From positions 1 through 55,882 of the IMG/VR virus record IMGVR_UViG_3300011443_000016: a DNA stretch of 55,882 bases. The stretch is one strand, 5' to 3'. The translations under genes and the position numbers were made by a program. Below are positions 9,642-42,771 of the stretch, piece after piece (the first letter of the stretch is position 1; every line of letters begins with the position of its first letter). The DNA is from a virus (taxonomy: Duplodnaviria > Caudoviricetes). The notes beneath the pieces are model-generated. The model ran no database searches, had not been told where the DNA came from, and was given only the letters and a program-made list of their open reading frames with translations.

Positions 9642-9675
9642 AAAACACCCGCTATCCAGGCGGGTGTTTTTATTT
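9642..9675. terminator. Bidirectional intrinsic terminator between convergent operons
   Basis: AAAACACCCGC-tatccag-GCGGGTGTTTT. Confidence 0.85.
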
Positions 9676-10024: not shown

Positions 10025-10823
10025 GCCTGATCGAATTGCGAACCGTGTTTATACCTTGCGGCACTTCCAGCCTTTGTGATGAGGCCATTTTCCATTTGCC
10101 ACACCGGACATTTTGCTATCATTTAAATTGTTTTCTCGGCAAAATCCCTTTAATCCTTTGATTTCAAACTCGAAGCCTTCCGGGGGAATGACGATGTATC
10201 GTTCACTGTTTGCCTCGCCAATCTTGCGGCGATGTTCTTTACTGACTTCATGCTCTTTATTTGCCTCGCCAATCTTGCGGCGGGTTTCTTCACTGACTTC
10301 ATGCCCCCTGGCTGCCTCACTCAATTTGCGGCGATGTTCCTCACTGAGATGCTTACCAAAATTAGCATTATTCGATCCCTTGCGTGCCTCGCTCAGTTTT
10401 CTCCGTGTTTCTATGCTGTGAGATTTACCTTTGAGTGCTTCACTTATTTTGCGGCGATGTTCCTCACTGGCTTTCCGCCCACGCATCGGCGCTTTAGCAC
10501 TTGTTCCAATGTTGTAGCAAATGCCTTTCGGCATATAAATATTGAGAAAATGATCCTCGCGTGCTTCTAACTGATCGACTGAACAATATTCCAGCACCTT
10601 GAATTGAAAGGCATTTTCACCATATTTATTCCATGCGGCTTGAAGATGTAAATTATGATGATATTGACCATTCAATTCACGGCGGTGATACTGCCAACGC
10701 TCCTTAAAATTAACCGCGCTGCCGATGTAAATTTTACCGTTTTTCGTGTTGAGGATAATGTATATGCCTGAGACTGGATCGCTCATCGTATGCCACCCGT
10801 TTCAGCCTGATCGAATTGCGAAC
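10025..10823. mobile_element. GIY-YIG cassette bounded by 19-bp direct repeats
   Basis: GCCTGATCGAATTGCGAAC at 10025-10043 and at 10805-10823. Confidence 0.75.
10049..10786 (-). CDS. GIY-YIG homing endonuclease with NUMOD3-type repeats
   Basis: SGIYIILN...[16 protein letters not shown] repeats, C-terminal HHKGW; paralogue of 570-1355. Confidence 0.9.
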
Positions 10824-11061: not shown

Positions 11062-11483
11062 GATTTAAATCTCCTGGGCGGTGTATCAAATCCGTTCCGG
11101 CGAAAGCGTTCATTGCACGCATGGCAGCGTCCTTTGCGCAGTGGCTTTGATGGTTTCCCGCAGTTGACGCATGGTTCAGCGGGATGACTATTGCGCTTTG
11201 AATGGACGAACTGTTCCATACGCCCGTCTATTTTCATGTGACAAGCACGACACACGAACATGATATTGCTGCGCTCATTATTGCCCGTGTTTCCGTCCAC
11301 GTGATGCCGATCCACCGCCTGCGCTATAAAACAGTTTTCGCATAACGGCAAATGTCTGTACAGTCTTCGCGCCCTGCTACGCTTTGTATCTGGGTGCGCA
11401 GCATCGCCTTTCCAGCTTGAACTCTGATTGCCGCGTAAAACGACTTTGTAAGGTGCTTTAAGATTCCAGCCTCGTTTGCTCAC
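11058..11483 (-). CDS. HNH endonuclease with zinc-binding motifs
   Basis: CENC...HHVDGNTGNN...CRACH, plus C-terminal CxxC pairs. Confidence 0.8.
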   Translation of the reverse strand: MSKRGWNLKAPYKVVLRGNQSSSWKGDAAHPDTKRSRARRLYRHLPLCENCFIAQAVDRHHVDGNTGNNERSNIMFVCRACHMKIDGRMEQFVHSKRNSHPAEPCVNCGKPSKPLRKGRCHACNERFRRNGFDTPPRRFKS

Positions 11484-11827
11484 GATACCCCCATTTGCAT
11501 TTCAGCTTTTCTCTGGCAGTAAATTTCCCAACGCTTTGCGCCTTCTGCGCCTCTAAACTGCACAAGATTAGGTATTGAAACCATTTTCTGCGCAGTTATT
11601 TTCCCACCGACTGCACCCCATTTTTTGAAGTCCCCCGCGTTACTATGCAGGGCAGTGTGGCAACGTTGACAAAGAAAGGATAAGTTCAGCGTATCATCCG
11701 TGCCGCCTTCGCAGCGTGGAACGTTGTGGTGAATGTGGCGGGCGACACGGCGGCAACCGCACTGGCACATGATCGAGTTGCCGTTGCTGTCTTTGAGGGG
11801 CGGGTAAATTTGCTGTAGGGTTTTCAT
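11480..11827 (-). CDS. HNH endonuclease
   Basis: CQCGC...HHNVPRCEGGTDDTLNLSFLCQRCH. Confidence 0.8.
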   Translation of the reverse strand: MKTLQQIYPPLKDSNGNSIMCQCGCRRVARHIHHNVPRCEGGTDDTLNLSFLCQRCHTALHSNAGDFKKWGAVGGKITAQKMVSIPNLVQFRGAEGAKRWEIYCQRKAEMQMGVS

Positions 11828-11857
11828 GAGCTTGAGCCTCAGTTGAAAATTTTGTAA

Positions 11858-12106
11858 TTAGATGGTTAAGCGAATGACGATGTAAGCTGAACCGTCGATT
11901 GGGTATGCATTAACAACCAATTCACGACGGGCGCTGCTGAATACCGCTGCGTGTAATCCTTTGCCGCTGGTGGTGTCAAGTGCGTCACCGATGATGCGGA
12001 CAGCCTTGAACTGCTTAAAATTTTCAGTTTTGATCCCGCGCGCAAGGAGTGCGGTTTCAATTTGTTCTTTTGTAAGATTAACTTTGGAGCTAATGGTGAT
12101 TTTCAT
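11858..12106 (-). CDS. Hypothetical early protein
   Basis: First ORF after a consensus promoter; TGAGGCTCA SD. Confidence 0.7.
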   Translation of the reverse strand: MKITISSKVNLTKEQIETALLARGIKTENFKQFKAVRIIGDALDTTSGKGLHAAVFSSARRELVVNAYPIDGSAYIVIRLTI

Positions 12107-12144
12107 TTGTGAGCCTCATTTGCTTGTTATTTGACTATGAATTC

Positions 12145-12184
12145 ATTATACTCTCAATTTAATTTATTGTCAATACCCAAAATT
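12145..12184 (-). promoter_or_regulatory. Sigma70 promoter TTGACA-17-TATAAT within the conserved 18-bp box
   Basis: -35 at 12173-12168, -10 at 12150-12145; box AATTTTGGGTATTGACAA. Confidence 0.9.
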
Positions 12185-12758: not shown

Positions 12759-13892
12759 TTAACGGCGGGCGATGCTCACCTGCTGCGCAGCGCGGCTGAA
12801 CAGGCTGTCAGGCGCAGTCAGGATTGATCCCGCCTGGGTTTCCATCTCCACACGGGCAGCGCTGTCTTCAATCTTGCTGGCGGCGAAGGATACGCCGTTC
12901 ACCAGTCCCATGTGTGTTTCCTGACCTTCTGTGCCGATCAGGATTTGACTCTGGGTTTCGTCCGCCCAATTGTACTGCTTGCTCAAGCCTGCCAACACTT
13001 CTGCCAGATTGGGCAGCGCCTTGTTGGTCACTTCGTAGATGCGGTTCAGTACATGCGCGCCTACGGGCAGAATGTCCGCGAACGACTGCTGCAAGCGTCC
13101 CAGCAAAACCTGAGTTTCGCCCAGATGACGCAACTGAATGTTTTCCTTGTGTTCCACGATGATCGAATTGGCGCAGCCGTGCCGCTGCACCAGTGCCTTG
13201 ACCGACAGCCCGCCGCGTCCAGTTTCTTCATTGCCGACGTATGCGCCGAAACCATAGGGGCGGTTGCCCACATCGCCGCGCCGGGTTTCGCCCTGCGGCA
13301 CGATTTCAGGATTCTGGACTTTGGGGTTCTGAAAGACGATGCGCATATCCAGGCGATCACGGGTGATGCTGCTGTTATGCACCTTCAGGTCGGGCATGGC
13401 TGATCCGGTTGCCGCCAGAACTTCGTGGACGGCGTTCAAGACTTGCGTATTGTCCACAATCCCATACTTGTCGGTGAGGATGGCGCGAATATCTTTGCCG
13501 TGTGTGCGCACCAGCAAGCCTTTGCTCTCAATCTGCGGGATCAGGTCATTCATGATGGCGGCGAAATACTTGGGATACCGCACCAGCATCACGTCCCAAT
13601 CGGCGCTGTCCATTGTCGTGCCGTTGCCTTTGCCGAAGTAGGGAACGCTCACTCGTCCCAGCAGTTGGCGCAGGGCGTTGGTTTCGAGGGTCAGATTGGC
13701 GACTCGTTCAAAGCCACCTGGCACACCGAACAGGTCAGCAGGTTTGGTGAAATTCACCTTGCCCGTGTTGGTCACGCTGAAATGGCTGGGCGCACCTTCC
13801 AGATCGACTTTTTTCTTGTCGAATTTTTCACTGGCAGCAATCAGCTTGTCCAGTTCCTTGAGTTGAGTCTTGATGGCGGTTTGGCTGGTCAT
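12759..13892 (-). CDS. DUF932-like protein
   Basis: RAILTDKYGIVDN, GNEETGRG, RHGCANS and RH motifs. Confidence 0.65.
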   Translation of the reverse strand: MTSQTAIKTQLKELDKLIAASEKFDKKKVDLEGAPSHFSVTNTGKVNFTKPADLFGVPGGFERVANLTLETNALRQLLGRVSVPYFGKGNGTTMDSADWDVMLVRYPKYFAAIMNDLIPQIESKGLLVRTHGKDIRAILTDKYGIVDNTQVLNAVHEVLAATGSAMPDLKVHNSSITRDRLDMRIVFQNPKVQNPEIVPQGETRRGDVGNRPYGFGAYVGNEETGRGGLSVKALVQRHGCANSIIVEHKENIQLRHLGETQVLLGRLQQSFADILPVGAHVLNRIYEVTNKALPNLAEVLAGLSKQYNWADETQSQILIGTEGQETHMGLVNGVSFAASKIEDSAARVEMETQAGSILTAPDSLFSRAAQQVSIARR

Positions 13893-13958: not shown

Positions 13959-14297
13959 TTAGAATGCTACCGCGTCTTCAATGATGGCGACGGCTTCATT
14001 GACGGACGAGGTAACAAAGCGGTTGACCATATACAGCACGTTGTAATCTTCGGTCAAACGGACTTCAATCGGCAGGTCGGTCAGGTAAATGAATTCGGTG
14101 GTGGCGCTGACCAGCCCGTTGTCCAGGGCGAAGTCGTAGGTGCGATCCCGCAGGATTTGCAGCAGGTCGCGGATCGACTTTTCCTCATAGTTGGCGATGG
14201 TGAAATCTTCGCGGACGAATTCCGGTTCAGCAGCGGCGCTGTCCACGATTTCGTCGGTCTGATGGGAGAAAAACAGGTTGCGGATTGGGTTGAACAT
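13959..14297 (-). CDS. Hypothetical early protein (acidic)
   Basis: First ORF after a promoter box; TGAGGCTCA SD. Confidence 0.7.
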   Translation of the reverse strand: MFNPIRNLFFSHQTDEIVDSAAAEPEFVREDFTIANYEEKSIRDLLQILRDRTYDFALDNGLVSATTEFIYLTDLPIEVRLTEDYNVLYMVNRFVTSSVNEAVAIIEDAVAF

Positions 14298-14336
14298 GAG
14301 TTTGAGCCTCAGTTAAGTTATTCGATCTATGTAATC

Positions 14337-14389
14337 ATCATAGCGTAGATTAGATTTATTGTCAATACCCAAAATTGATTTGGGTATTG
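14337..14389 (-). promoter_or_regulatory. Promoter TTGACA-17-TATGAT with palindromic operator-like site
   Basis: -35 at 14365-14360, -10 at 14342-14337; CAATACCCAAA-attga-TTTGGGTATTG (14363-14389). Confidence 0.85.
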
Positions 14390-14397
14390 TTTCCCCC

Positions 14398-14835
14398 TCA
14401 ACCGATGTAATGAATCAGGGCAAGGCGCAGCATATCTGCGTCGGTGCAGTCCTGCCCATCGTGTCGATCCTTGTACTCCCGATGCGCCTGTTCCAACAGG
14501 GTTTCCGTCAGCGGTTTCTTTTCTAGCATATAGAATTCCCGTTTCGGACGTTTCGCCCCGACTGGACGGGTGCGCGGTCTGCCCACCTTGCGCTTGGGAC
14601 GCGGCTGGTTCTCTTGCTGGGCGGCGCGCACCTGCTGAACATCCAGTCCCAGGCGTGCCAGCCCTTTGTCGGTGATTTCAAACGTCATGCCCGTGTCGCC
14701 AATCGGGATCATCCAGCCCTGCGCCACCAACGGTTGTGAGTCGGTCTGGCGAAAGATTGACACCCGTCCCCAGGGATTGCTGGCGGCTTCCCGCATCATT
14801 TCCAGTTGCACGGTACTTATATCGTATTCCATCAT
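14398..14835 (-). CDS. Putative DNA-binding protein (AT-hook-like GRPR, RHH-like C-terminus)
   Basis: KRKVGRPRTRP; ...DADMLRLALIHYI; AAGGAGG SD. Confidence 0.5.
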   Translation of the reverse strand: MMEYDISTVQLEMMREAASNPWGRVSIFRQTDSQPLVAQGWMIPIGDTGMTFEITDKGLARLGLDVQQVRAAQQENQPRPKRKVGRPRTRPVGAKRPKREFYMLEKKPLTETLLEQAHREYKDRHDGQDCTDADMLRLALIHYIG

Positions 14836-15080
14836 TAACCTCCTTGATTGGCTTGTCGATAACGGTCTGCTTGTTCCGCGCTCATGTCCAGCGCCGTGTA
14901 GAATTCCAACACCTGCGAACAGTCGTCCCCTGCGCGGTGGTAATGCGTGCGCCACTCATTCGCGCAGCCCTTTGTGCGGCAGTCCACCTGGGTCAGCGGT
15001 GCGCGGGCGGGATTGCCGGATGCCTGCTGCTGGGCGCTGGCGATGCGCCCACAGCAATTGCAGATGAACAGTGTGGTCAT
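14835..15080 (-). CDS. Small Cys-rich (zinc-binding) hypothetical protein
   Basis: CNCCG...CRTKGC; GGGAG SD. Confidence 0.55.
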   Translation of the reverse strand: MTTLFICNCCGRIASAQQQASGNPARAPLTQVDCRTKGCANEWRTHYHRAGDDCSQVLEFYTALDMSAEQADRYRQANQGG

Positions 15081-15090
15081 AGTGTCTCCC

Positions 15091-15291
15091 TCAGTCCCAA
15101 ACGTTGGCATATTTCAGCCCGGCTTCAACTTGAAGATTATTGCGGGTTACAATGCTTTCGGCGGCAATCAACACGCCCAGCGCGATGTTAAATTCCTGGC
15201 TGCAAGCGCCGAATAATTGACCGATTTTAACGGCGTAAGCCTTTGCTAATTTGTATTCGTAGATGGCTGCAAAAATTTGTTCGTTGGTCAT
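15091..15291 (-). CDS. Hypothetical early protein
   Basis: First ORF after a promoter box; AGAGGCTCA SD. Confidence 0.65.
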   Translation of the reverse strand: MTNEQIFAAIYEYKLAKAYAVKIGQLFGACSQEFNIALGVLIAAESIVTRNNLQVEAGLKYANVWD

Positions 15292-15329
15292 TTTGAGTGA
15301 GCCTCTGTTGTGTTGCTGTCGATGAAGTA

Positions 15330-15370
15330 ATCATATATCGGGAAGTAGTTTTTTGTCAATACCCAAAATT
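15330..15370 (-). promoter_or_regulatory. Promoter TTGACA-18-TATGAT within the conserved 18-bp box
   Basis: -35 at 15359-15354, -10 at 15335-15330. Confidence 0.75.
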
Positions 15371-15397
15371 GAGAAGGGTTTATAACATAGATTTTAC

Positions 15398-15426
15398 TTT
15401 ACAAAATATCAAAATGAGACTAAGAT
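15398..15426 (+). promoter_or_regulatory. Promoter TTTACA-17-TAAGAT for the candidate sRNA
   Basis: -35 at 15398-15403, -10 at 15421-15426; divergent from the leftward early promoter. Confidence 0.6.
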
Positions 15427-15432
15427 TTAAAC

Positions 15433-15503
15433 ACATCTGAGATTTGAGCCTCAAAGATTTAAAAACCACCTGCGCCCGAAAGTGTGCAGGTGGTTTTTAT
15501 TTT
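15433..15503 (+). ncRNA. Candidate trans-acting antisense sRNA (~70 nt)
   Basis: Lies between a promoter and a terminator with no ORF on this strand; contains CAUCUGAGAUUUGAGCCUCA, complementary to six gene leaders. Confidence 0.55.
15461..15503. terminator. Bidirectional intrinsic terminator
   Basis: AAAAACCACCTGCGC...GTGCAGGTGGTTTTTATTTT. Confidence 0.85.
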
Positions 15504-15505
15504 GC

Positions 15506-15943
15506 CTAGCGGACGCTGCCAGAATAATTTTTCAGCCACTTCAAATCATCGTCAGACAAAATAAACCACTCGGTTTGCTTAACCCGTTTGCTCATGTAGC
15601 GCCCGTGCAATTCGCCTTCCAGTTTGTACATATCATCCGTCTTGATCGTGCAAACGGTTTGCACATCGAATGGCAGCAGCACGCCAAAGGTTTTGGCGCG
15701 GCGGTGCAAATCGCGCGTTCTGCCTATCTTGTAATAGGTTTCATTCGTCAGCGATTGAATGACATACACGTATCCATCACGATAGCGGATTTTAGGTTTT
15801 GGCGGTGGGGATTCAAACGCTTGCAGCAGTGCCATCAATATCGAAAGCAACATGGCGACGAATACGCCGTCTGCTCGATCAAAAGTGAATGCACTAACAG
15901 CCGATAGAAAAAAGAAAAAGGATAGAAAACCAAACGTAGGCAT
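15506..15943 (-). CDS. T5orf172/GIY-YIG-family nuclease with N-terminal TM segments
   Basis: GYVYVI...YKIGRT...LEGELH...EWF, preceded by two hydrophobic stretches. Confidence 0.75.
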   Translation of the reverse strand: MPTFGFLSFFFFLSAVSAFTFDRADGVFVAMLLSILMALLQAFESPPPKPKIRYRDGYVYVIQSLTNETYYKIGRTRDLHRRAKTFGVLLPFDVQTVCTIKTDDMYKLEGELHGRYMSKRVKQTEWFILSDDDLKWLKNYSGSVR

Positions 15944-16044
15944 AGCATCACTCTCCAATGCTGACTCTCGTAATGTGGCAATCAGGGCGGCGAGAGTAGC
16001 CGCCCGTTCGGTAGCGAACCTAGATTGCTGATTGAAGTATTATA
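15941..16044 (-). promoter_or_regulatory. Structured 5' leader RNA (three-way junction with anti-SD loop)
   Basis: TATAAT at 16044-16039; GCAATC/GATTGC closes GTTCG-ctac-CGAAC and GGGCGGC-tactctc-GCCGCCC. Confidence 0.6.
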
Positions 16045-16915
16045 ACTCGTTTTGTCCATTCCCGTTAGATCGAATGTGGCGTTGGACGTTATTCACAGTG
16101 GACTTCCCAACGCCCAGGAACAGCGCCAAATCGCGCGCCTCACGTTCAATGTCCTGCGGGTTCTCAGCTAAGTGGCGTTGGACAACTTGAGTGGCATCAG
16201 GCCGCTTGGTGTGTCCAAGACTGGACGCGGCTGGGAGCATATTTTGTCCATTGGACTGTCCATTGGACAGTTGGACAGCCTGTGGTCTGGACACGCTAAT
16301 GGACGATTTCATACCTGGATAGGCTTTGTTAAATGCTTTGATAACTTCAGCGTCAAACTTTTCCAGGGCGGTTTGGTAGCTATCCTTATTGCGCTTTGCA
16401 AGGATTCGTTCAGACCGATTGATCTGCACATAAACCTTTCCCGCCATGAGTGCCATCAGCGGTGCGCCGATGCCCATAATAACCGCCACTGCAATTTCCC
16501 CGAACGTTGCAGCCTTGCCGCTTGTTCCCAGCGCCCGACTGACACTATCCAGGTTGGCAGTCATGGCAAAAAGAAACACTACGATCAGGATAGCATAACC
16601 CCACCATTTTTCGCGGACGATCAGGTAAGCGCTCAGCAGCAGCGCCAGTTCCACCGACACAAACGAAAATAGCGCCACCGCGATATACACGAATGGAGGC
16701 AGCAGTGAATTCGTGACTTCCATCAAGCGATACACGGTGCTAACCGTATGAACGCCTGAAAGCAATGAAGCACTGACAAACATTGCCGCAGTCGCTTTAG
16801 GCAACCATGCGGGCGTGTCGCTGACTTCTTCATACATTTCCAGGCGCGGCACACTCGCCGGATGCTGGGCTTCATAAAACTCCCTGTACTGAGAAAACAA
16901 TTCTTGAATGTCCAT
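16040..16915 (-). CDS. Membrane protein (about 4 TM) with C-terminal HTH
   Basis: Four hydrophobic segments, then a coiled coil, then ARDLALFLGVGKSTVNN; start chosen from the GGGAG SD. Confidence 0.6.
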   Translation of the reverse strand: MDIQELFSQYREFYEAQHPASVPRLEMYEEVSDTPAWLPKATAAMFVSASLLSGVHTVSTVYRLMEVTNSLLPPFVYIAVALFSFVSVELALLLSAYLIVREKWWGYAILIVVFLFAMTANLDSVSRALGTSGKAATFGEIAVAVIMGIGAPLMALMAGKVYVQINRSERILAKRNKDSYQTALEKFDAEVIKAFNKAYPGMKSSISVSRPQAVQLSNGQSNGQNMLPAASSLGHTKRPDATQVVQRHLAENPQDIEREARDLALFLGVGKSTVNNVQRHIRSNGNGQNEL

Positions 16916-16937
16916 TATCGCAAACTCCCTCATGTGA

Positions 16938-16967
16938 CTAAAAAGCCTCCCCGGTATGGAGAGGCTT
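16938..16967 (-). terminator. Intrinsic terminator
   Basis: Minus strand AAGCCTCTCC-atacc-GGGGAGGCTTTTT. Confidence 0.7.
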
Positions 16968-16991
16968 GTGTAACCTTGACTATCTCCCCGA

Positions 16992-18311
16992 TTAGAACGG
17001 GATTTCACTCAGCTTCAGGATGCGCAGCACATTCTCACGCACTTCCGCATTCGCATCCCCTGGTAGAAACGCTTCCACTTGCCCAGCGTCGTGTCCGCAG
17101 CGCTGGGCGATACAGGCAGCCCAAGCGTCCGCTTTCGTGCCGACAAACTCCTGCACGTGCTGAATAGGATCAACACTGATGTACAGCAGCGCTTCCATCA
17201 CTGCGCTCATATCCAAGCCTAATTTCTGATTGGCCTGGGCAATGAACTTGCCCGCCGTTTTCGCATCCAATGCCCATTCCAGGTCATTGTCTACGGGCGA
17301 TTGCGCTGCGCTTGAATTTGACCCTTTCTCGTTGGTTTTAGCGGTATTCTTTTCAATCTCGCGGCGCATCCGATTTTCAGCAATCGTCTGGACAACCTGT
17401 TCATCCGTCATGTCATCCAGGATTTCACCATCGGACACCATCTTGAAAATGGCATTGTCCCAATGATTGTCATGATCGAATAGGTGAATGGTTTCCGCCT
17501 TCACATAATCCCGATCCCATTCCTGCGCGGAATTGAATTCGGCTTCAATCGGCAGTTCACCCGTTTCCGGGTTCACGCCAGCCAGCAGCAGTTGGGCTGG
17601 GCGCATCAGCATCGGCGTGAACACCTGCTGATTGAATTCGGGTTCAATCTTGACGAATAACAGCGACATGGCCTTAATACTGCGCTTGCCATTGATCGTG
17701 ACCGGAACATCGCGCATTGCCCGCCCGATGGTGAACGGCACGGACCAGAACGCCACGCCCGTCAATTTCTGCATGAAGGCTTCTGCCATCGTCATGTAGC
17801 TGCGCAGGGCAATCACGTCATAGATCGAGGTGGTTTCAACGGTGAACTTCACCCATTCGCCTGTTGCCTGATACAGTTCAGGCAGCACGATGTCCAGCCG
17901 TCCATGCTGCTTACAATCTCGCTTGAGTGGGTCGCAAGTGCAAGCCAGCGGTTCGGTGCTGTAATCCGGTTTGATCCCATTTTCTTCCCAATGCAGCACA
18001 ATCGTTTCTTCGTCGCAGCGCTTGAGCAGGCGGGCGTGCGCCCACTGCTCATTCCAGTATTGGAAGGCTTGTTCAGGCGAGTCAGCCGCCATCAGGACGT
18101 TGTGGAATTCCTGCGGTTGGTTGCCATACAACGCTTCAAAGGCAGGGCGAATATGTTCATAGGGCGTTTCCAGCGTCAGGCGAAAATGATCCTGATCCCG
18201 GCCTGCACCGCGTTCGGTTTTCTCAGCGCCTTTGCGCAGCTTGCCCGCGCGCGGGAAATTGCCCAGCACGCCCCGGTCTATGATTTTCTGCTCCACAGAT
18301 TTGATCGGCAT
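16992..18311 (-). CDS. phiC31 gp3-like (recombination directionality factor-like) protein, C-terminally extended
   Basis: PRAGKLRKG...HFRLT, RCD, CTCD..C...GRLDIVLPE, ETTSIY; sits at the usual recombination-gene position. Confidence 0.55.
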   Translation of the reverse strand: MPIKSVEQKIIDRGVLGNFPRAGKLRKGAEKTERGAGRDQDHFRLTLETPYEHIRPAFEALYGNQPQEFHNVLMAADSPEQAFQYWNEQWAHARLLKRCDEETIVLHWEENGIKPDYSTEPLACTCDPLKRDCKQHGRLDIVLPELYQATGEWVKFTVETTSIYDVIALRSYMTMAEAFMQKLTGVAFWSVPFTIGRAMRDVPVTINGKRSIKAMSLLFVKIEPEFNQQVFTPMLMRPAQLLLAGVNPETGELPIEAEFNSAQEWDRDYVKAETIHLFDHDNHWDNAIFKMVSDGEILDDMTDEQVVQTIAENRMRREIEKNTAKTNEKGSNSSAAQSPVDNDLEWALDAKTAGKFIAQANQKLGLDMSAVMEALLYISVDPIQHVQEFVGTKADAWAACIAQRCGHDAGQVEAFLPGDANAEVRENVLRILKLSEIPF

Positions 18312-18342: not shown

Positions 18343-18738
18343 TTATTCCAGGCCGCTATTCGGCACAGGCTTGCTGGCAAGAATTGCATCCATCGCCGGG
18401 ATTTTTTGACCCGGTTGCGCAATGCGTAGCCAGCGATACACTGAGCAGTTTTTGCGCATACTGTTGTCAGGATCAGATTCTTTAATCAACCAGGGCGCAA
18501 GTCGCGTCACTTCCGCTTCCACCATCGGCAGGATGACCAGCGCCAGATCAGATTTCATCCGGCTTAAGCCCTCCACAATTTCAGCGGCGCGTTGTGCCTC
18601 GCTGTGCGTATCCGGCACGATAATGTCTTGCGTGGCTTCTAGGGTGATATTTCCGTATTCCATCAGCGGAACGGTGGCACGGACGGTGATGGTGATCGGG
18701 TTGCGGACGGGTTCAGTTTCAGACGATTTGTTAACCAT
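18343..18738 (-). CDS. Hypothetical protein
   Basis: Start MVNKSS after an AGAGGCTCA SD. Confidence 0.65.
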   Translation of the reverse strand: MVNKSSETEPVRNPITITVRATVPLMEYGNITLEATQDIIVPDTHSEAQRAAEIVEGLSRMKSDLALVILPMVEAEVTRLAPWLIKESDPDNSMRKNCSVYRWLRIAQPGQKIPAMDAILASKPVPNSGLE

Positions 18739-18767
18739 TGATGAGCCTCTTTCTAACCTATTCAATC

Positions 18768-18830: not shown

Positions 18831-19190
18831 ATGGAATACAAACTGACGCTCCCTTATCCGCCGTCTGTTAACCGCCTGTATGTCCGCAATCGCTATGGTG
18901 GCGTATCGCTTTCCGCTGAAGCGCAGGCGTTCAAGGCGGGCGTAGCAGTGGTGGTATTCAATGCCCGCATCACCGAACCGTTAACGGGTGCGCTGGGCAT
19001 TGAAATTCAGGTGTATCGCAAGGCTGAACGCGGCGATCTGGATAACATTCTGAAAATCACACTGGACTCGCTCAATAAAAAATTATGGGACGATGATCGG
19101 CAGATTGTCGCCTTACATGCTTTCCGTTATCAAGACAAGCATGATCCCCGATTACTCATCCACGTATGGCAAATGAAGGAGTCAAAATGA
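18831..19190 (+). CDS. rusA: RusA-family Holliday junction resolvase
   Basis: LPYPPSVN, DLDNILK..LDSL, WDDDRQI. Confidence 0.9.
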   Translation: MEYKLTLPYPPSVNRLYVRNRYGGVSLSAEAQAFKAGVAVVVFNARITEPLTGALGIEIQVYRKAERGDLDNILKITLDSLNKKLWDDDRQIVALHAFRYQDKHDPRLLIHVWQMKESK

Positions 19191-19921
19191 GCGCAGCAGC
19201 CAAAATCATCGGTCTGGAACTGACCCAGCAAGAGGCGCAGGAATTGGTGAGGCGGATTGACCATCATCTGACCAGTGCGGAATACCAACTCAGCGCGGCG
19301 CGGGAACTCATCTGGCAACTGCATGAACATGGTGGCTGGCAGGCGTTGGGTTACAAATCGTGGAATGCCTGCGTCCAGGCCGAATTTGAGCAGTCGTCCG
19401 CCAGTGTCTACCGCCAACTGAATGCCGCCCTGGTGGAACTGGAATTGTCGCCCAATGGGAGAATCGGTGAACTGAACGAACGGGTGCTGCGCCCGTTGAC
19501 GCGCCGCAATTTCGACACGGAAGCACGGCAAGCCATCTGGTCAATCAGCCAGGAGATTGTGGGTGAGGGCGGCAAGGTGACAACGGGTGTGGTTGAGGAA
19601 GTCGTGACCGGGTTGAAAGAAATGCTGGTGAGTGGGCATACTCAAGACAGTGACGGCAACCAGCACGCCATCACCGAAATCATGCACGCTGATCTGGTGG
19701 CACGGGTGCGCGAAAAGAAAATCGCCCACAAGGAACACATTCGCCGGATGGACAAACCGCGCGATTACATCCTGGGCGGCAAACCTGCTGCGCATATCGA
19801 ACGTCAGCAGCCCTGCGATGCAGTGATTATTTTGAACCTGGATACTTTTGAAGACATTAAACTACATGAAGCACAGCGCAGTGGAAAGAAAATTTATTGT
19901 TCGCTGTGGACGGAGGATTAA
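19187..19921 (+). CDS. Hypothetical DNA-binding protein
   Basis: GWQALGYKSW...EF...SVYRQL HTH-like motif common in phages; ATGA-coupled. Confidence 0.6.
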   Translation: MSAAAKIIGLELTQQEAQELVRRIDHHLTSAEYQLSAARELIWQLHEHGGWQALGYKSWNACVQAEFEQSSASVYRQLNAALVELELSPNGRIGELNERVLRPLTRRNFDTEARQAIWSISQEIVGEGGKVTTGVVEEVVTGLKEMLVSGHTQDSDGNQHAITEIMHADLVARVREKKIAHKEHIRRMDKPRDYILGGKPAAHIERQQPCDAVIILNLDTFEDIKLHEAQRSGKKIYCSLWTED

Positions 19922-20804: not shown

Positions 20805-20896
20805 TATAATAGACACATCAAAAGAAGTCCCCGCGCTGTTGAAGCAGCCGGGGCATGATCCAAAAGGACAGGCTAATGGATACCTCTCAGTATACC
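20805..20896 (+). promoter_or_regulatory. Endonuclease leader: extended -10, hairpin, SD, opposing -10
   Basis: TGtTATAAT ending at 20810; hairpin 20827-20854; AAGGA SD; AGTATA at 20889-20894. Confidence 0.55.
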
Positions 20897-21352
20897 TCAA
20901 AAGACTATATCCGTTTTTGGTCAAAAGTGAATATTGCGCTTGATTCCGATTCCTGCTGGAATTGGAAAGCGTCTATCAATAGACATGGATATGGACAATT
21001 TACTCAAAAAAGCAAAGTCGTTAAAGCGCATCGTGTCGCTTGGATTTTGACTTACGGGAAAATCCCTGATGGGCTTCACGTTCTCCACACATGCGACAAT
21101 CGTGCTTGCTGCAATCCTAAACACCTATTTTTAGGCACGAACAAAGACAACGTTGATGATCGTGAACAAAAAGGGCGCAATAAGATTATGCGCGGCGAAA
21201 GTAACGGGAACTCAAAATTAACTATTTCTCAAGTAGAATATATTCGTGCGCGTTATGCTGCTGGTGGAATTTCGCAGCAAAAACTGGCTGAAGAAACCGG
21301 GATAGATCAAACCCAAGTCAGCAATATTATTCGACGCAAAGTGTGGAAATAA
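20876..21352 (+). CDS. HNH homing endonuclease with C-terminal HTH
   Basis: RFWSKV, CWNW, AHRVAW, VLHTCDNRACCNPKHLFLGT..DN. Confidence 0.92.
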   Translation: MDTSQYTSKDYIRFWSKVNIALDSDSCWNWKASINRHGYGQFTQKSKVVKAHRVAWILTYGKIPDGLHVLHTCDNRACCNPKHLFLGTNKDNVDDREQKGRNKIMRGESNGNSKLTISQVEYIRARYAAGGISQQKLAEETGIDQTQVSNIIRRKVWK

Positions 21353-22477: not shown

Positions 22478-22599
22478 TTTACGAAGTCGGCAGGCAGGGC
22501 TACAATTCGATACATGCTCAATAAATGAGCAGCGGCGGAATGACCGCCGCTTATCCACTTACACGAGGGCAGTCGCGTAAATGAATGATCTATATTCTA
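22478..22599 (+). promoter_or_regulatory. Replication operon promoter and hairpin leader
   Basis: TTTACG-17-TACAAT (22478-22506); hairpins TGCTCA/TGAGCA and AGCGGCGG/CCGCCGCT. Confidence 0.6.
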
Positions 22600-22790
22600 C
22601 CCCAACTGAACCCGAATTCCAAGACCCAAGCATTAAAACTGCATTAAATTCCCGCTGGAATTATTTTAAATCGCTGCATGGAGACATCCTCGCGGCGCAA
22701 TTTGATTCTGATTCCCTTTCCGCCAACCGCAATTTCGTCCAGATTGACCGCCAAACTTATGTAGCGTTGGCAGAAAGCATGAAATCATGA
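22581..22790 (+). CDS. Hypothetical protein
   Basis: ORF coupled to the initiator gene. Confidence 0.55.
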   Translation: MNDLYSTPTEPEFQDPSIKTALNSRWNYFKSLHGDILAAQFDSDSLSANRNFVQIDRQTYVALAESMKS

Positions 22791-28217: not shown

Positions 28218-28292
28218 AATTTTGGGTATTGACAAATAATTCAATACCCACTATACTGAGTATATAAGTTTAATTTTTCACCTTGAGGCTCA
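28218..28292 (+). promoter_or_regulatory. Promoter TTGACA-17-TATACT in the 18-bp box, with inverted repeat and TGAGGCTCA SD
   Basis: -35 at 28229-28234, -10 at 28252-28257; TGGGTATTGA-8-TCAATACCCA. Confidence 0.88.
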
Positions 28293-28300
28293 CACTCAAA

Positions 28301-28741
28301 ATGACCACCGCCAAAACCTTCTACACCGACAAAGAATTGACCCGCCGCAGCACGGCGCAACTGATCGCCATTTACAACCGCCTGTTCAATACGAATGTTT
28401 GGGACGAATATTTCAACCCGTTTGAACACCGGATGGAAATCTGGATGGCGCTGTGGATGGAAATGCGGGCGCAGGAAGTGGTGGCGCTGTTCACGGATGC
28501 GGATCGTGGCACAGGCGAGAAATATAAGGCCATGAAGATTAACATCACGCCAGACGGTTGGATTATCACCTGGGGCAAACATCACAGCACAACTCGCAAA
28601 TCGAACGCAAAAGTGAATGAAAGTCAAAAAACTTTAATGCGTCAATTGAAGGCCGATGGCGAAACATATCGTTGGATTGCTGATGTGTTTGGCATTACTG
28701 ATAGTGCTGTTTTTTACATCTTAAATAAAAGAGGAGCCTAA
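28301..28741 (+). CDS. Early protein with C-terminal HTH
   Basis: GETYRWIADVFGITDSAVFYIL. Confidence 0.65.
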   Translation: MTTAKTFYTDKELTRRSTAQLIAIYNRLFNTNVWDEYFNPFEHRMEIWMALWMEMRAQEVVALFTDADRGTGEKYKAMKINITPDGWIITWGKHHSTTRKSNAKVNESQKTLMRQLKADGETYRWIADVFGITDSAVFYILNKRGA

Positions 28742-28831: not shown

Positions 28832-29368
28832 ATGGCGAAACAACCCAAGATTACACGACGCAAAATTACCGATTATATTCCCGACAATTCAAATGCAAAT
28901 TCTGGTTCAGAACGCGGTTTGCAAATGGTCGAAGATAGCCTATCTCAGGACGGGGTAGGGCGATCTATTGTTGCAGATGGACATGATCGAATCCCAGCGG
29001 GCAACAAAACGCTTGAAGCGGCTATGAATGCTGGTATTGAAGATGTGATCGAAATTGAAACCGATGGGCGTGCCTTGATCGTCCACAAGCGCATCGATTG
29101 GGATTTGGCCGATCCTCAAGGTGCGGCACGTCGCTATGCTTATCGAGATAATCGGGCATCTGAAGTGTCATTGAATTGGGATATTGAACAAATAAAAAGC
29201 GATCTCGATCAAGGAATTGATTTAAGCGGATTGTTTTCCGAATTAGAATTGAAAACACTACTGGATAAAATCGTTCTCCCCGATGATTGGAAAGAATTTG
29301 ATGAATCGGTTGCCAATGAAGTCGAATACTTCACTTGCCCGGAATGTGGGCATAAGTTCCCGAAATGA
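28832..29368 (+). CDS. ParB/Srx-like N-terminal domain protein with zinc ribbon
   Basis: DYIPD..NAN, GRSIV.D....AGN.T, DNR, C-terminal CPECG; typical partner of phage MTases. Confidence 0.7.
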   Translation: MAKQPKITRRKITDYIPDNSNANSGSERGLQMVEDSLSQDGVGRSIVADGHDRIPAGNKTLEAAMNAGIEDVIEIETDGRALIVHKRIDWDLADPQGAARRYAYRDNRASEVSLNWDIEQIKSDLDQGIDLSGLFSELELKTLLDKIVLPDDWKEFDESVANEVEYFTCPECGHKFPK

Positions 29369-30792
29369 TTAATGTTTTCGATTTGTTTCCAAAGGCACAA
29401 AATAGGCCGATAACGGTTCGAGAAGCCTTTTTACAATTACCAGAATTAGAACTGGATACCCCGGTAGCCTGGGGTAATAATCCCAATTGGGCAGTGTCAA
29501 AATATATCCCACGCATAAAACAGGGAGGCTCATGTGATGACGTGCATCCCAAAAAAGCAGGGTATAATTTGATAAGATTACACTCCCAAAAGGTTTCCCC
29601 AACAATCCCCAAGACTTGTAACGGTTCTTTGTTCGCCGGGTTGCTGCCACCTGAAGGCAATAGATATTGTTCTATTCAAGAATTAAAACGTCTCGCGTCA
29701 TTTCCAGACGATTTTCAACTAATCGGTAAATTTCGGGATCAATGGGCGTGCATCGGCAACAGTGTTCCACCACTTTTTATGAGGGCAATTGCTTTGCAAA
29801 TACGATCAGAAGTCTTTGATAAATCTACAGAGACATCTACAAACAATCCCCGAAATAGCTACCTGCAAATTTTAGATGCAGCATGGCGGCAACATCTAGC
29901 ACCGCGCCTATCCGATGCGCCAACGGTGATTAGCACATTCGCAGGGGCGGGTGGTTCGTCACTTGGTTACAGCATGGCGGGATACCGAGAACTGTTAGCT
30001 GTTGAATGGGACAACAATGCTGTCGAAACGTTCAAACTGAACTTTCCTGATGTGCCGGTTTATCATGGCGACATTGCCAAGTTATCCGTCGATGAGTGTT
30101 TGCAGATGGCAGGTATCCAGGCGGGCGAGTTGGATGTATTCGATGGTTCGCCGCCGTGCCAGGGATTTAGCGCTGCTGGCAAGCGCATGATGGATGATCC
30201 GCGCAACCAATTGTTTCGTGAGTACGTGCGACTGCTGAGAGGTTTGCAACCCAAAGTATTCGTGATGGAAAACGTGAGCGGTATGGTTAAGGGCAAGATG
30301 AAGCTTGTCTTTGTCGAAATCCTCAAGGAACTCAAGGCCAGCGGTTATCAGGTCAAGGCGTGCTTGCTCAATGCGATGTATTTCAATGTGCCACAGTCCA
30401 GGCAGCGTATGATATTTATCGGTGTGCGGAATGACCTGGGGATTGTGCCGAGTCATCCGAAAGCGCAGCATAAAATACTAAACGGTACGGCGTTGTTACC
30501 TGATGAACTGCAAAATAAACGTTTTTTGACATGGCGTAAAAAATTTAAACGCGACACCTTGCGCCCGTTGGGAAGCGTACCCATTACGGTTACTCGAAAG
30601 GGCATTGACCTGGAAGGGCGTGAAGTCTTTTCAGATGCATCAATAGTTCAAATATTTCAATCTTTTCCAACACAGTTTCTATTTACTGGAACAAATGCCC
30701 AAAGCGTTATGCGTATCGGTAACAGCGTTCCCCCGCTATTCATGAGGGCAATCGCCCAACATATTCGAGAGCAAATCCTAGATATGCTTTAA
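29365..30792 (+). CDS. C5-cytosine DNA methyltransferase with duplicated TRD-IX-X module
   Basis: FAGAGG, GSPPCQGFS, ENV, QSRQR; IGNSVPPLFMRAIA present twice. Confidence 0.9.
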   Translation: MINVFDLFPKAQNRPITVREAFLQLPELELDTPVAWGNNPNWAVSKYIPRIKQGGSCDDVHPKKAGYNLIRLHSQKVSPTIPKTCNGSLFAGLLPPEGNRYCSIQELKRLASFPDDFQLIGKFRDQWACIGNSVPPLFMRAIALQIRSEVFDKSTETSTNNPRNSYLQILDAAWRQHLAPRLSDAPTVISTFAGAGGSSLGYSMAGYRELLAVEWDNNAVETFKLNFPDVPVYHGDIAKLSVDECLQMAGIQAGELDVFDGSPPCQGFSAAGKRMMDDPRNQLFREYVRLLRGLQPKVFVMENVSGMVKGKMKLVFVEILKELKASGYQVKACLLNAMYFNVPQSRQRMIFIGVRNDLGIVPSHPKAQHKILNGTALLPDELQNKRFLTWRKKFKRDTLRPLGSVPITVTRKGIDLEGREVFSDASIVQIFQSFPTQFLFTGTNAQSVMRIGNSVPPLFMRAIAQHIREQILDML

Positions 30793-30926: not shown

Positions 30927-31014
30927 TATAATAAAATAAATCCTCCGCACCGCTTCGGACAGTGGGGAGGAATAACCCAAAGGAACTAACCCTATGGATA
31001 CCTCTCAGTATACC
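30927..31014 (+). promoter_or_regulatory. Endonuclease leader: -10, hairpin, SD, opposing -10
   Basis: TATAAT at 30927-30932; TCCTCC...GGAGGA hairpin 30941-30971; AGTATA at 31007-31012. Confidence 0.55.
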
Positions 31015-31767
31015 CTAAAACAATCAAAACAATGTGAACGCTGCGGATTGTCTATTAATCATAATGGGCGCGGCAATTTCTGTTCGCAAGCCTGCTATTG
31101 GGCTTCTATGCGAAACCCCATTGAACGTATATGCAAAATTTGTAATCAGCCTTTTGTTGTGACTGCGAATCGAATAAAGCCTGGACAGGCATTATTTTGT
31201 AGTCGTAAATGTCGTGGAATATATCGCCAGCAAAGTCGTGTTGAATGTATCTGTATCCAATGCGGAAAAGACTTCTGGAAATACCCATCGGAAGTAAAGC
31301 GGGGCGGTGGAGTGTATTGCTCAGTTGAATGTTCTGGAATACATCGAACCCGGTCAATTAATTGCACCTGTTTAAATTGTGGCACTGAATTCACTTCTAC
31401 CCCTTCAAAAATTGAAAAGGGGAGCGGGAAATACTGTAGCCATAAATGTTATGCTGCGGTCAAAAGTTTGGAGTATCGCGGTGCAAAGAACCCTGAATGG
31501 CGTGGTGGGAAAAGTGATTATCGCGGGGAGAATTGGACACAGCAGCGAAAGTTAGCTTATAATCGTGATAACGGTGTATGTCAGCACTGCGGTAAGAAGC
31601 CGCAGAAGGGAAAACGAAAATTTCAGGTGCATCATATCAAACCGTTTCGCTTATTTGATGGTGATTATGAAGCAGCCAATCAACTGACGAATTTAATTAC
31701 ACTATGCGAGTCTTGTCATGGCAAAGCTGAACACGGTAAGATCGCTGTGCAGCCACATTTATTTTAG
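30994..31767 (+). CDS. HNH endonuclease with tandem Cys4 zinc fingers
   Basis: Four CxxC...(F/Y)CSxxC repeats, then RD.G.CQHCG...VHHIKP...NLITLCESCH. Confidence 0.9.
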   Translation: MDTSQYTLKQSKQCERCGLSINHNGRGNFCSQACYWASMRNPIERICKICNQPFVVTANRIKPGQALFCSRKCRGIYRQQSRVECICIQCGKDFWKYPSEVKRGGGVYCSVECSGIHRTRSINCTCLNCGTEFTSTPSKIEKGSGKYCSHKCYAAVKSLEYRGAKNPEWRGGKSDYRGENWTQQRKLAYNRDNGVCQHCGKKPQKGKRKFQVHHIKPFRLFDGDYEAANQLTNLITLCESCHGKAEHGKIAVQPHLF

Positions 31768-31776
31768 GAGTGAATC

Positions 31777-32331
31777 ATGAGTGATGTAATCCAACCAAAC
31801 GATAAACGCCTTTATATCTTCGGGAAAAATGGATGCTTGGTTCGCAGTATTGTGGATGCTAAAACAGGTAAGTCACACGCACCCTCGATTTTAGCCGATC
31901 AGGATTATTTTCCTGATGTGATGGATGCGTGTTTTGGCTTGCGATTGCAAGGACATCAACTCGCAGTGGTATCGAATGAAGGTGGCTGTGCATTCGGGAT
32001 TTTGACCGAAGAAGAAGCCGACTTGATGGCGAAAGCGGCTGCGGCTTATATCGGCACAGAGGTTTATAGGATATGCCCGTTCCATCCTAAAGGTAAAATT
32101 TCGCAATACACCAGGGAGCATCCGAATAGACTTCCCCAACCCGGCATGTTATCTGAAATCATGCATCAATTAGGGTTTCTTCCATCGGAAACGATATTTG
32201 TAGATGATTGGGAAACCAGTCGGCAAGCTGCAAACATGATCGGCGCGGGATTTGAGTGGAGTCATCAGTTCTTCAAGCGGGTCGATCCCTTTGCAGATCG
32301 CTTACACGCGGCGCTGGACTGGAAAGAATGA
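31777..32331 (+). CDS. HAD-IIIA (GmhB-like) phosphatase homologue with degenerate catalytic motifs
   Basis: VVSNEGG, CPFHP, RLPQPGML, FVDD; DxD motif replaced by GKN. Confidence 0.65.
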   Translation: MSDVIQPNDKRLYIFGKNGCLVRSIVDAKTGKSHAPSILADQDYFPDVMDACFGLRLQGHQLAVVSNEGGCAFGILTEEEADLMAKAAAAYIGTEVYRICPFHPKGKISQYTREHPNRLPQPGMLSEIMHQLGFLPSETIFVDDWETSRQAANMIGAGFEWSHQFFKRVDPFADRLHAALDWKE

Positions 32332-32588
32332 ACACGCTGCCATTCATCGAACCCAAACTGACCGCCGAAGACATTGCTGTGTATGAAGCGATTGAGGAAT
32401 TGTATTCGCTCAATGGTTATTCCCCGACCATCCGTGATCTTCGGAAACGGTTAGGCTATAAGAGTACAGACACAGCACAGCACCATATCACGCGGTTGCA
32501 TCGGGCAGGTTGGATCAGCCGGGAACCGAAACTGGCACGGGCAATCGTACCCGTCAAATATCCAAGAGTCCACTATCGCCGTAAGTAG
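32328..32588 (+). CDS. LexA-type DNA-binding-domain-only protein
   Basis: GYSPTIRDL...LGYKS......HI..L...GWI.R.P..ARAI. Confidence 0.75.
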   Translation: MNTLPFIEPKLTAEDIAVYEAIEELYSLNGYSPTIRDLRKRLGYKSTDTAQHHITRLHRAGWISREPKLARAIVPVKYPRVHYRRK

Positions 32589-32681
32589 AAATGAAAATTC
32601 CCCGCGTCAACGGGGAATTCCTTTTGCCTGACCCTGACCGGATCACATTGCATTATACGAGTATTTTGCGGACGTGCCAAT

Positions 32682-42021: not shown

Positions 42022-42126
42022 TATAATTGAGGTCATAAATAGCAACAGGCCAGGAGTCGAAACCTTCTGGCCTGTCTACCAACAATGGAGTATCATTCCA
42101 TGTCAGATAACCTCGATAGTACCACA
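42022..42126 (+). promoter_or_regulatory. Endonuclease leader: extended -10, hairpin, SD, opposing extended -10
   Basis: TGtTATAAT ending at 42027; ACAGGCCAG/CTGGCCTGT 42045-42075; minus-strand TGgTACTAT at 42124-42116. Confidence 0.55.
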
Positions 42127-42771
42127 AGAACCTGCAAAACCTGTAAACAAGAACATCCCGCCACAACTGAATATTTCTACGCGGCAAAAAGTGGCGGGAA
42201 TATCTATCTGCGTGGCACATGCATTGCGTGTTACAAAGCGATTTCAAAGCAAGAACACGCGCGGCGATTTGCCGAAGACCCCGACAAAATCCGTCAGCAG
42301 CAGCGCGATTGGTTAGCTGATCCTGAGCATTATCAGGTGTATCGTGATTCTCAAAAAGAATGGATACATAGAAACCCTGAGAAGGTAAATGCGCAAGCCA
42401 GAAAATGGAAAATCGCCAACCCTGATAAGACTAAAATTATCAACAAAAAGGCGGGCGATAAATATTACGCTACTCATAAACACGTTCGCAAAGCAGGCAA
42501 ATCCCGCCGCCGCGCCCGCGAACTCGCAGCCCCAGGCCATCACACCGCCGCCGACATCCTGCTGCAAATAGCCTCGCAAACCGATAAGAAGGGGTGTTTG
42601 CGCTGTTGGTGGTGTGGATGTGCTATAATCGGTGCTTATCATGTCGATCACCGTGTAGCGCTGGCAAAGGGCGGAACGAACTGGCCTGACAATCTTGTCA
42701 TAAGCTGCCCGACCTGCAACCTGTCAAAACATGACAAGTCAGCGCAAGAATGGGCAGGGCGTTTAATATGA
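42100..42771 (+). CDS. HNH endonuclease
   Basis: CKTC...CIAC; CWWCG...HVDHRVALAKGGTN...NLVISCPTCNLSK. Confidence 0.9.
   Translation: MSDNLDSTTRTCKTCKQEHPATTEYFYAAKSGGNIYLRGTCIACYKAISKQEHARRFAEDPDKIRQQQRDWLADPEHYQVYRDSQKEWIHRNPEKVNAQARKWKIANPDKTKIINKKAGDKYYATHKHVRKAGKSRRRARELAAPGHHTAADILLQIASQTDKKGCLRCWWCGCAIIGAYHVDHRVALAKGGTNWPDNLVISCPTCNLSKHDKSAQEWAGRLI

Follow-up and report, generated by a model that had tools for sequence, protein, structure and literature searches.

A candidate phage small RNA that could repress early genes through a shared Shine-Dalgarno motif

The phage RNAs known to block ribosomes, such as c4, sar and OOP, each act on a single gene or operon and come mostly from temperate phages; where virulent phages are known to silence their early genes in a coordinated way, they do so with proteins. 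In the sections of a 2025 review of phage small RNAs that treat them, c4 of P1 and P7 is a trans-acting RNA of 77 nucleotides (nt) that pairs around the ribosome-binding site of ant through complementary bases held in loops, sar of P22 and OOP of lambda, each a short RNA (about 68-77 nt), share their terminator with the opposite strand and prevent expression of a phage gene by base pairing, and these and the other RNAs covered there have one target each (PMC12197685). Pseudomonas phage transcriptomes have added many candidate non-coding RNAs, none of which, in the part of that report concerned with them, follows the logic described here (PMC10914365). A limited search of the literature found no phage RNA aimed at a Shine-Dalgarno (SD) motif shared by several of the phage's own early genes. 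We describe a locus at positions 15398-15503 of the virus record IMGVR_UViG_3300011443_000016 that may encode such an RNA: a candidate small RNA (sRNA) complementary to an extended SD motif in front of six genes of the same genome. The window, by which we mean the whole stretch of DNA analysed, is the full record of 55,882 bp, a complete phage genome with direct terminal repeats, whose genes run leftward across 9.7-18.8 kb and rightward elsewhere. Judged from its sequence, a multi-target anti-SD sRNA would be the best single explanation of this locus, one that we advance tentatively and regard as somewhat short of probable.

Two other kinds of regulator offer points of comparison. The Hfq-type trans-acting sRNAs of bacteria (e.g. 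RybB and OmrA/B) have their own promoter, a 5' seed, an A/U-rich stretch and a Rho-independent terminator with a U tail, and they act at the ribosome-binding sites of several targets. In T4, the RegB endoribonuclease and the RegA translational repressor silence many early messenger RNAs (mRNAs) through a short sequence in the initiation region. As for c4, it is processed out of a transcript that it shares with its target.

An earlier note on this DNA, made from the letters alone, had placed a + strand promoter and a strong terminator around a short non-coding unit at 15398-15503, divergent from a leftward early promoter. Our promoter and terminator scan recovered the sequence and both signals where the note had put them, together with the divergent promoter. 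The features of the locus are:

15398..15426, + strand: promoter-like site TTTACA-17-TAAGAT of the candidate sRNA, with 9 of 12 consensus matches
15433..15503, + strand: the predicted sRNA of ~71 nt, comprising a 5' seed region, an A/U-rich linker, a terminator hairpin and a U tail
15444..15453, + strand: seed TTGAGCCTCA, complementary to the leader motif; a weak 4-bp hairpin holds its 5' half in the loop
15460..15499, both strands: bidirectional intrinsic terminator of 16 pairs, 7 of them G-C, which also closes the leftward operon at the T5orf172 gene 15506-15958
15330..15370, - strand: divergent leftward early promoter TTGACA-18-TATGAT with an 18-bp cassette, from the promoter scan and a cassette match

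The start at 15433 is placed by reference to the -10 hexamer. The + strand of the unit contains no ATG, and the 71-nt RNA has a predicted fold of -29.2 kcal/mol (z -6.8) with UUUGAGC in the loop of the weak hairpin. The terminator hairpin is slightly stronger on the + strand (-25.9 kcal/mol) than on the - strand (-22.2 kcal/mol), and neither strand is consistently favoured when the close relative G001 is considered together with the window. No other feature of the + strand in the 9.7-18.8 kb region requires a + strand terminator at this site. An independent promoter and an intrinsic terminator around a short non-coding RNA, the arrangement common to sRNAs in general, are predicted in both the window and G001.

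The candidate RNA resembles c4 in that it would pair with ribosome-binding regions, as it does in silico at -9.8 to -15.6 kcal/mol. It differs in that c4 governs a single operon (ant) in a temperate phage, as the basis of immunity, whereas the candidate has six dispersed targets in other operons and a promoter-like site of its own, opposite to all neighbouring genes; moreover, there is no Rfam C4 match, and no lysogeny genes were seen among the scanned proteins of this phage. Like sar and OOP, it would be a short phage RNA ending at a terminator shared with the opposite strand; unlike them, since both are cis-encoded with a single overlapping target, it would act in trans on several leaders via a seed of 9-10 nt. 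The predicted layout and the multi-target, ribosome-binding-site logic are those of the Hfq-type sRNAs, with the differences that regulator and targets all come from one phage and that the shared target is an extended SD motif. The nearest functional parallel is RegA/RegB of T4, which follow the same logic as proteins where the candidate regulator is an RNA; we noticed no RegA or RegB homologue among the window proteins scanned. No Rfam family reached its gathering score anywhere in the window, and at E values up to 10 the 15350-15560 region and the G001 locus gave only far sub-threshold, terminator-driven rows, none of them C4; a match to OmrA-B lay far below threshold (12.3 bits vs 40). By analogy, the unit would work like c4, sar and the bacterial seed-type sRNAs without being a c4 family member. 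The earlier note had likened it to the c4 and P4 CI RNAs in a genome with no recognisable CI: the likeness extends to mechanism and not to family, and the remark on CI applies to the part of the open reading frames (ORFs) covered, 50 window proteins put through Pfam with 0 matches to an integrase or a CI-type repressor, and is qualified by an 86-residue LexA_DNA_bind protein encoded at 32328-32588.

The leader motif WGAGGCTCA, i.e. (T/A)GAGGCTCA, has 7 exact matches in the window against 0.56 expected, a number attained by 0/100 shuffles. Six of them stand 3, 3, 5, 5, 6 and 8 nt upstream of the ATG of real ORFs, at exactly the six positions that had been reported as SD regions, and no 8-mer is more enriched than GAGGCTCA in the 24 nt ahead of called starts, where 6 of its 8 copies lie; the remaining window genes mostly have GGAG or AGGAG-type sites. 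The six targets, with the net predicted pairing energy of each leader and its rank among 83, are:

15298..15306, - strand: motif AGAGGCTCA, 6 nt upstream of the ATG of the 66-residue gene 15091-15291; -12.5 kcal/mol, rank 3
14303..14311, - strand: motif TGAGGCTCA, 5 nt upstream of the ATG of the 112-residue gene 13959-14297, with the cassette at 14359-14376; -15.6 kcal/mol, rank 1
12110..12118, - strand: motif TGAGGCTCA, 3 nt upstream of the ATG of the 82-residue gene 11858-12106, with the cassette at 12167-12184; -10.9 kcal/mol, rank 5
11833..11841, - strand: motif TGAGGCTCA, 5 nt upstream of the ATG of the HNH endonuclease gene 11480-11827; -14.7 kcal/mol, rank 2
18742..18750, - strand: motif AGAGGCTCA, 3 nt upstream of the ATG of the 131-residue gene 18343-18738, the first of the leftward operon; -9.8 kcal/mol, rank 7
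28284..28292, + strand: motif TGAGGCTCA, 8 nt upstream of the ATG of the 146-residue gene 28301-28741, with the cassette at 28218-28235; -11.7 kcal/mol, rank 4

Five of the six genes are the first behind a promoter, as the earlier note had it. In four of them (12110, 14303, 15298 and 28284) the motif is preceded by an identical 18-mer, AATTTTGGGTATTGACAA, which contains the -35 hexamer (4 matches vs 0.07 expected) and belongs to promoters with 11-12 of 12 matches; the 18742 copy stands behind a weaker promoter, TTGTAA-17-TATACT, and the 11833 copy, ahead of the HNH gene, is operon-internal and has no promoter at all. The distance from motif to ATG is 3-8 nt and that to the -10 hexamer 23-38 nt; the position of the motif follows the start codon rather than the promoter. 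All 8 window copies of GAGGCTCA, the one in the sRNA locus included, are oriented like the local genes. The eighth, read as GGAGGCTCA at 29525-29532 (+), lies within the C5-methylase ORF 29365-30792 with an in-frame GTG 9 nt further on, and may be an internal start, a seventh target or a chance occurrence. Of the six target proteins, Pfam and PHROGs identified only the HNH endonuclease; the other five had no match, and an atlas look-up of two target proteins returned no function.

We also observed that the four copies of AATTTTGGGTATTGACAA (12167-12184, 14359-14376, 15353-15370 and 28218-28235) keep the same letters though their spacers and leaders differ. G001 retains just ATTGACAA of the cassette, whose upstream part, AATTTTGGGT, may be an UP-like element or a factor site particular to this phage.

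In the mechanism that we propose, 15398-15503 would be a small independent transcription unit of the + strand, with a host sigma-70-type promoter and a bidirectional intrinsic terminator, from which host RNA polymerase would make the ~71 nt RNA back to back with one early promoter. The 5' part of this RNA would bear UUGAGCCUC(A), partly exposed in a hairpin loop, which would pair with the extended SD sequence (A/U)GAGGCUCA located 3-8 nt before the start codon of the six genes, five of them first cistrons behind strong host-type promoters. Pairing over the GAGG core would block binding of the 30S subunit and so jointly repress translation of early genes, probably followed by decay of the mRNA, as an RNA counterpart to protein-based early shut-off. 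We consider it rather probable that the + strand of the unit is transcribed and, given transcription, likely that the RNA acts in trans on the leaders; the direction and timing of the effect, and any role for Hfq or RNases, are what we infer from this arrangement. The locus looks like a duplicated leader that later gained a promoter on the opposite strand.

Pairing was modelled as a cofold of the full-length RNA with each 50-nt initiation region, minus the self-folding energy of each partner; duplexfold without intramolecular structure proved noisy and was replaced by these net energies. The earlier note had expected the six leaders to rank top, and they take ranks 1, 2, 3, 4, 5 and 7 of 83 (-15.6 to -9.8 kcal/mol, median -3.3); among 90 leaders of G001, the first two ranks go to its two motif leaders. 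The predicted pairing covers GAGG with 8-10 contiguous bp and, for the 11833 and 14303 targets, can be extended towards the start codon to ~15 bp with one bulge; the extended similarity noticed earlier, CATGAGTTTGAGCCTCA versus CATCTGAGATTTGAGCCTCA, is present in the sequence. In these models the ranks indicate that the seed is not hidden in the fold and has no competitor among the other leaders.

GenBank yielded no phage relative by blastn (14000-17000) or tblastn (primase-helicase and 439-residue protein). The neighbouring 439-residue protein has about 50 homologues at 41-64% identity, and G001, in which the neighbouring protein is 61% identical, is the sole close relative with a complete record (58,838 bp). 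Single-protein scans of viral contigs with the 322- and 185-residue neighbours found no match and one with P0018 retrieved G001 alone; a scan of genome contigs with the 439-residue alignment found no match. The 16-mer GAGGCTCAAACTCATG occurs at 18 loci, of which only that of G001 has proteins in common with the window. Six short metagenome contigs (L012-L017) are also related to the window; none extends to the sRNA locus, L012 stopping within the T5orf172 gene immediately short of it, and L013 is near-identical to the window and thus not an independent sequence. Conservation of the sRNA locus was accordingly examined in two sequences, the window and G001.

At the homologous intergenic position of G001, after a different homing endonuclease gene (HNH) and a 53-residue ORF, there is a strong bidirectional hairpin terminator with AGAGGCTCA 11 nt downstream of it, sharing the core TTGAGCCTC with the window. 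The other strand carries TTGACA-18-TATGAT, directed at the motif and the terminator; with 11 of 12 matches it is the best of 14 promoter-like sites in 6.4 kb. For the predicted G001 RNA, 88 nt as folded and about 80 nt if counted from the likely start, the fold has an energy of -33.9 kcal/mol; an 8-bp hairpin carries UUGAGCC in its 9-nt loop, and the terminator comes next. The alignment of the two intergenic regions scores above all 500 shuffles and all 300 random windows, and its conserved blocks are the leftward -35, a block between the promoters, the sRNA -35, the spacer with the -10 (15/21 positions identical, by our own count on the alignment), the first ~20 nt of the RNA including TTGAGCCTC, and the terminator; the linker from seed to terminator differs in both sequence and length. 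The -35 hexamers of the divergent promoters are separated by 38 bp in the window and by 41 bp in G001. A relative that kept the leader motif without the sRNA locus would, according to the earlier note, speak against its proposal; G001 retains the terminator, the seed and a much better facing promoter. This check, in a second genome, of a prediction made from the window is our strongest argument that the + strand unit is real, and together with the conservation of the leaders it lends partial support to a multi-target anti-SD switch of early genes.

Some further observations concern this intergenic region. A block AAGGGTTATAA, AAGGGTT(T)ATAA, lies between the divergent -35 hexamers in both genomes (window 15371-15392; L011 about 13283-13300) and could be a regulator site for both promoters. 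The position of the T5orf172 gene of the window holds a different HNH gene in G001, which suggests an insertion hot spot just upstream of the terminator. Elsewhere in G001, at 58712-58744 (-), a hairpin just upstream of the promoter of the HNH operon has a loop, GATTTGAGCGATT, that resembles the sRNA seed region and is complementary to GCTCAAA of the downstream leader.

The leader motif is conserved as well. Both G001 orthologs of target genes, the HNH gene and the 131-residue gene, keep it (2/2 leaders). In front of the first leftward gene, G001 and 4/6 fragments (L013, L014, L015 and L017) retain GAGGCTCA at its full 8 nt, 3-4 nt from the ATG in those four, and the leaders of L014, L015 and L017 have diverged apart from the motif; the L012 leader reads GAGGTTCA and L016 has no such motif. 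The conserved 3' end of 16S ribosomal RNA (rRNA) can pair with GAGG only and CUCA cannot extend that pairing. Given that rRNA pairing explains GAGG alone, CTCA must be under some other constraint, and from these comparisons the leader motif itself is in all likelihood functional.

This conservation bears on two alternatives, both raised in the earlier note and both weakened by it. In 5/7 window copies the motif is a quasi-palindrome, TGAG-G-CTCA; a -10 hexamer precedes five of the target copies by 23-38 bp, and the window encodes a small LexA_DNA_bind protein. These features would suit TGAGGCTCA as a double-stranded DNA operator at which a phage protein, for example the 86-residue LexA-type winged-helix protein, blocks early transcription just downstream of promoters. 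We find this quite improbable because the palindrome is not conserved: position 1 is A, giving AGAGGCTCA, in G001 (3/3) and in four fragments among L013-L017, which breaks the 4-bp palindrome arms. In addition, the orientation is always that of the gene, the ATG spacing is tighter than the promoter spacing, the 11833 copy has no promoter, and neither the conserved inverted-repeat half-sites nor the orientation independence of a dyad-symmetric operator was found. Tight spacing to the start codon, loose spacing to the promoter and the loss of the palindrome thus favour a role at the RNA level over a dyad operator.

That the copies are functionless relics of duplicated promoter-leader cassettes appears very improbable. 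There are indeed four cassettes with an identical 18-mer, and the 12110 and 14303 leaders are alike along their whole length; however, the other leaders differ between the identical -35 block and the motif, which is also present without the cassette at 11833 and 18742 and is invariant in the diverged leaders of G001, L014, L015 and L017. The exact 18-mer has 5 unrelated single hits in viral contigs, none with the motif.

An RNA-level role could also be confined to the sense strand, the motif being an extended initiation signal for the ribosome or a site recognised by an RNA-binding protein of phage or host (a translational repressor, for instance, or a site-specific RNase). On this view the 15445 copy would be one sense copy more, marking a minor or vestigial start of translation for a tiny ORF on read-through transcripts, and the + strand would hold promoter-like sites without an sRNA role. 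We judge this reading unlikely without being far-fetched, and several findings count in its favour and against an anti-SD sRNA. Every copy of the motif has the orientation of its gene: 8/8 in the window, 3/3 AGAGGCTCA in G001 and 4/4 in the fragments. The copy within the sRNA locus shares this sense orientation, so that its complementarity to the leaders, which the earlier note had stressed, is true and at the same time automatic for any transcript of the opposite strand, and provides no independent evidence. Both copies that follow the terminator precede a start codon, an ATG at 8 nt in the window and a GTG at 7 nt in G001, of 18-codon ORFs; by our estimate a start codon would fall within 3-8 nt by chance in roughly a quarter of cases per genome, making this a mild but real coincidence. 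Shared extended SD motifs such as AAGGAGCC and AAGGAGTC repeat in relatives without an antisense copy, and one early leader of G001 carries AGAAGCTCA, a mismatch to the seed. Promoter-like sites with 9 of 12 matches are frequent (17 found vs 6.5 expected in shuffles over 8.5 kb), and the window's own sRNA promoter is one of these weak sites; promoter-plus-hairpin pairs number ~10 per genome in a loose scan, whose terminator finder is too permissive (197 hits) to serve for more than showing that such pairs are not rare. Half of the seed is paired in the predicted hairpins, and the top pairing ranks stem largely from the shared 9-mer. In the window targets position 1 is mostly U and the seed flank has A; in G001 the targets have A and the seed flank U. 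This T-to-A shift is accounted for as well by a shared sense consensus as by co-evolution of seed and targets. Both genomes have an identical seed core, partly in a loop, and covariation over two sequences, with one relative showing the locus, cannot separate an antisense from a sense role.

Several other findings are hard to accommodate on the sense strand alone. The two 18-codon mini-peptides are unrelated and the conserved -10 block is read in different frames; the 15445 copy lies between a strong terminator and the next promoter and would seldom be transcribed in sense; and the conserved promoter block on the opposite strand, near-consensus in G001, is left unexplained. Neither does an extended ribosome signal account for CUCA, which adds nothing to the pairing with 16S rRNA.

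The same pair of ORFs bears on a type I toxin-antitoxin-like arrangement, in which the overlapping antisense RNA would repress an 18-residue hydrophobic peptide (-, 15436-15380). The peptide encoded in the window, MCLNLSLILIFCKVKSML, is small and hydrophobic, and the antisense RNA would cover the region where its translation starts; the G001 counterpart, by contrast, is non-hydrophobic, unrelated and starts with GTG, and the window ORF sits behind a strong terminator without a promoter. A conserved hydrophobic toxin ORF, as in Ibs/Sib-like systems, was not found; since the peptides are unrelated and the frames differ, a conserved peptide of any kind is unlikely, and a type I toxin is barely credible.

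The + unit might instead be transcribed and act only locally, as a convergent transcript or antisense RNA that strengthens an operon boundary by pairing with read-through RNA or by polymerase collision. The RNA would be perfectly complementary to any transcript that reads through leftward, and to the hairpin at the 3' end of the upstream operon, and a second unit of like architecture, without an evident anti-SD seed, occurs on the minus strand at about 32594-32680, at another bidirectional terminator. There, TTGGCA-17-TATAAT (11 of 12) faces a terminator just after the 86-residue LexA_DNA_bind gene, inside a rightward block, and the -35, -10 and terminator are partly conserved in G001 (about 22530-22625); on sequence grounds another small RNA, some 50-60 nt long, could possibly come from it. 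This further conserved unit, with no evident anti-SD seed, gives the boundary reading some weight. We nevertheless hold it to be improbable, because a local role by itself does not explain why the short transcript keeps an exact 9-mer in both genomes while its flanks and the linker diverge.

Returning to the anti-SD sRNA, we also considered how widely such a system might extend. It is possible, though more doubtful than the existence of the sRNA in this phage, that a clade of apparently virulent siphophages uses one dedicated anti-SD RNA of 70-80 nt to co-repress its own early regulon as an RNA-only shut-off, with the seed and the 8-nt motif co-evolving and the gene derived from a reversed duplicated leader. 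The phage of the window is apparently a virulent siphophage. It encodes a large terminase, a tape-measure protein, a primase-helicase and RusA. The regulon would take in a homing endonuclease gene as well as the first cistron behind each strong host-type early promoter. If seed and leaders do co-evolve, the seed of the L012 lineage would read TGAACCTC, or keep G for a G-U pair. Such a system would be a new way to time a lytic programme, via a private SD extension and a trans-acting phage RNA with its own early-gene regulon, and would amount to a compact, portable and orthogonal translational switch made of an 8-10-nt tag and one small RNA. Synthetic leader fusions make the case directly testable although the phage is uncultured.

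Among more distant relatives, a terminase search gave 42 loci, of which 15 records were searched for the leader motif. These lack it, single GAGGCTCA occurrences in three comparing with 8 matches of a reversed control pattern. No comparable extended leader motif with an antisense copy was found in the whole sequences of six of the distant relatives, nor, in the early regions of G004 and G008, any intergenic unit of this kind; G004 does have a promoter paired with a terminator at 19140-19231, dismissed since it sits between late genes.

Finally, we made several observations on the initiation regions and cargo of these genomes. In G001, four rightward genes (17831, 21863, 56071 and 17036) have in common the extended SD TAAGGAGCC(AACCATG), with no antisense copy; its sharing implies that common extended initiation regions can arise without an sRNA. 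In the window, a strong bidirectional terminator at 9642-9670 marks the point where the rightward tail genes converge on the leftward early genes. Free-standing homing-endonuclease genes are unusually many (10049-10786, 11480-11827, 15506-15958, 20855-21352, 30994-31767 and 42100-42771) and include the GIY-YIG plus NUMOD3, HNH, T5orf172 and HNH_3 types. A protein of 1199 residues (43270-46869), encoded amid structural genes, has a methyltransferase domain fused to several glycosyltransferase domains, an unusual cargo for a siphophage.

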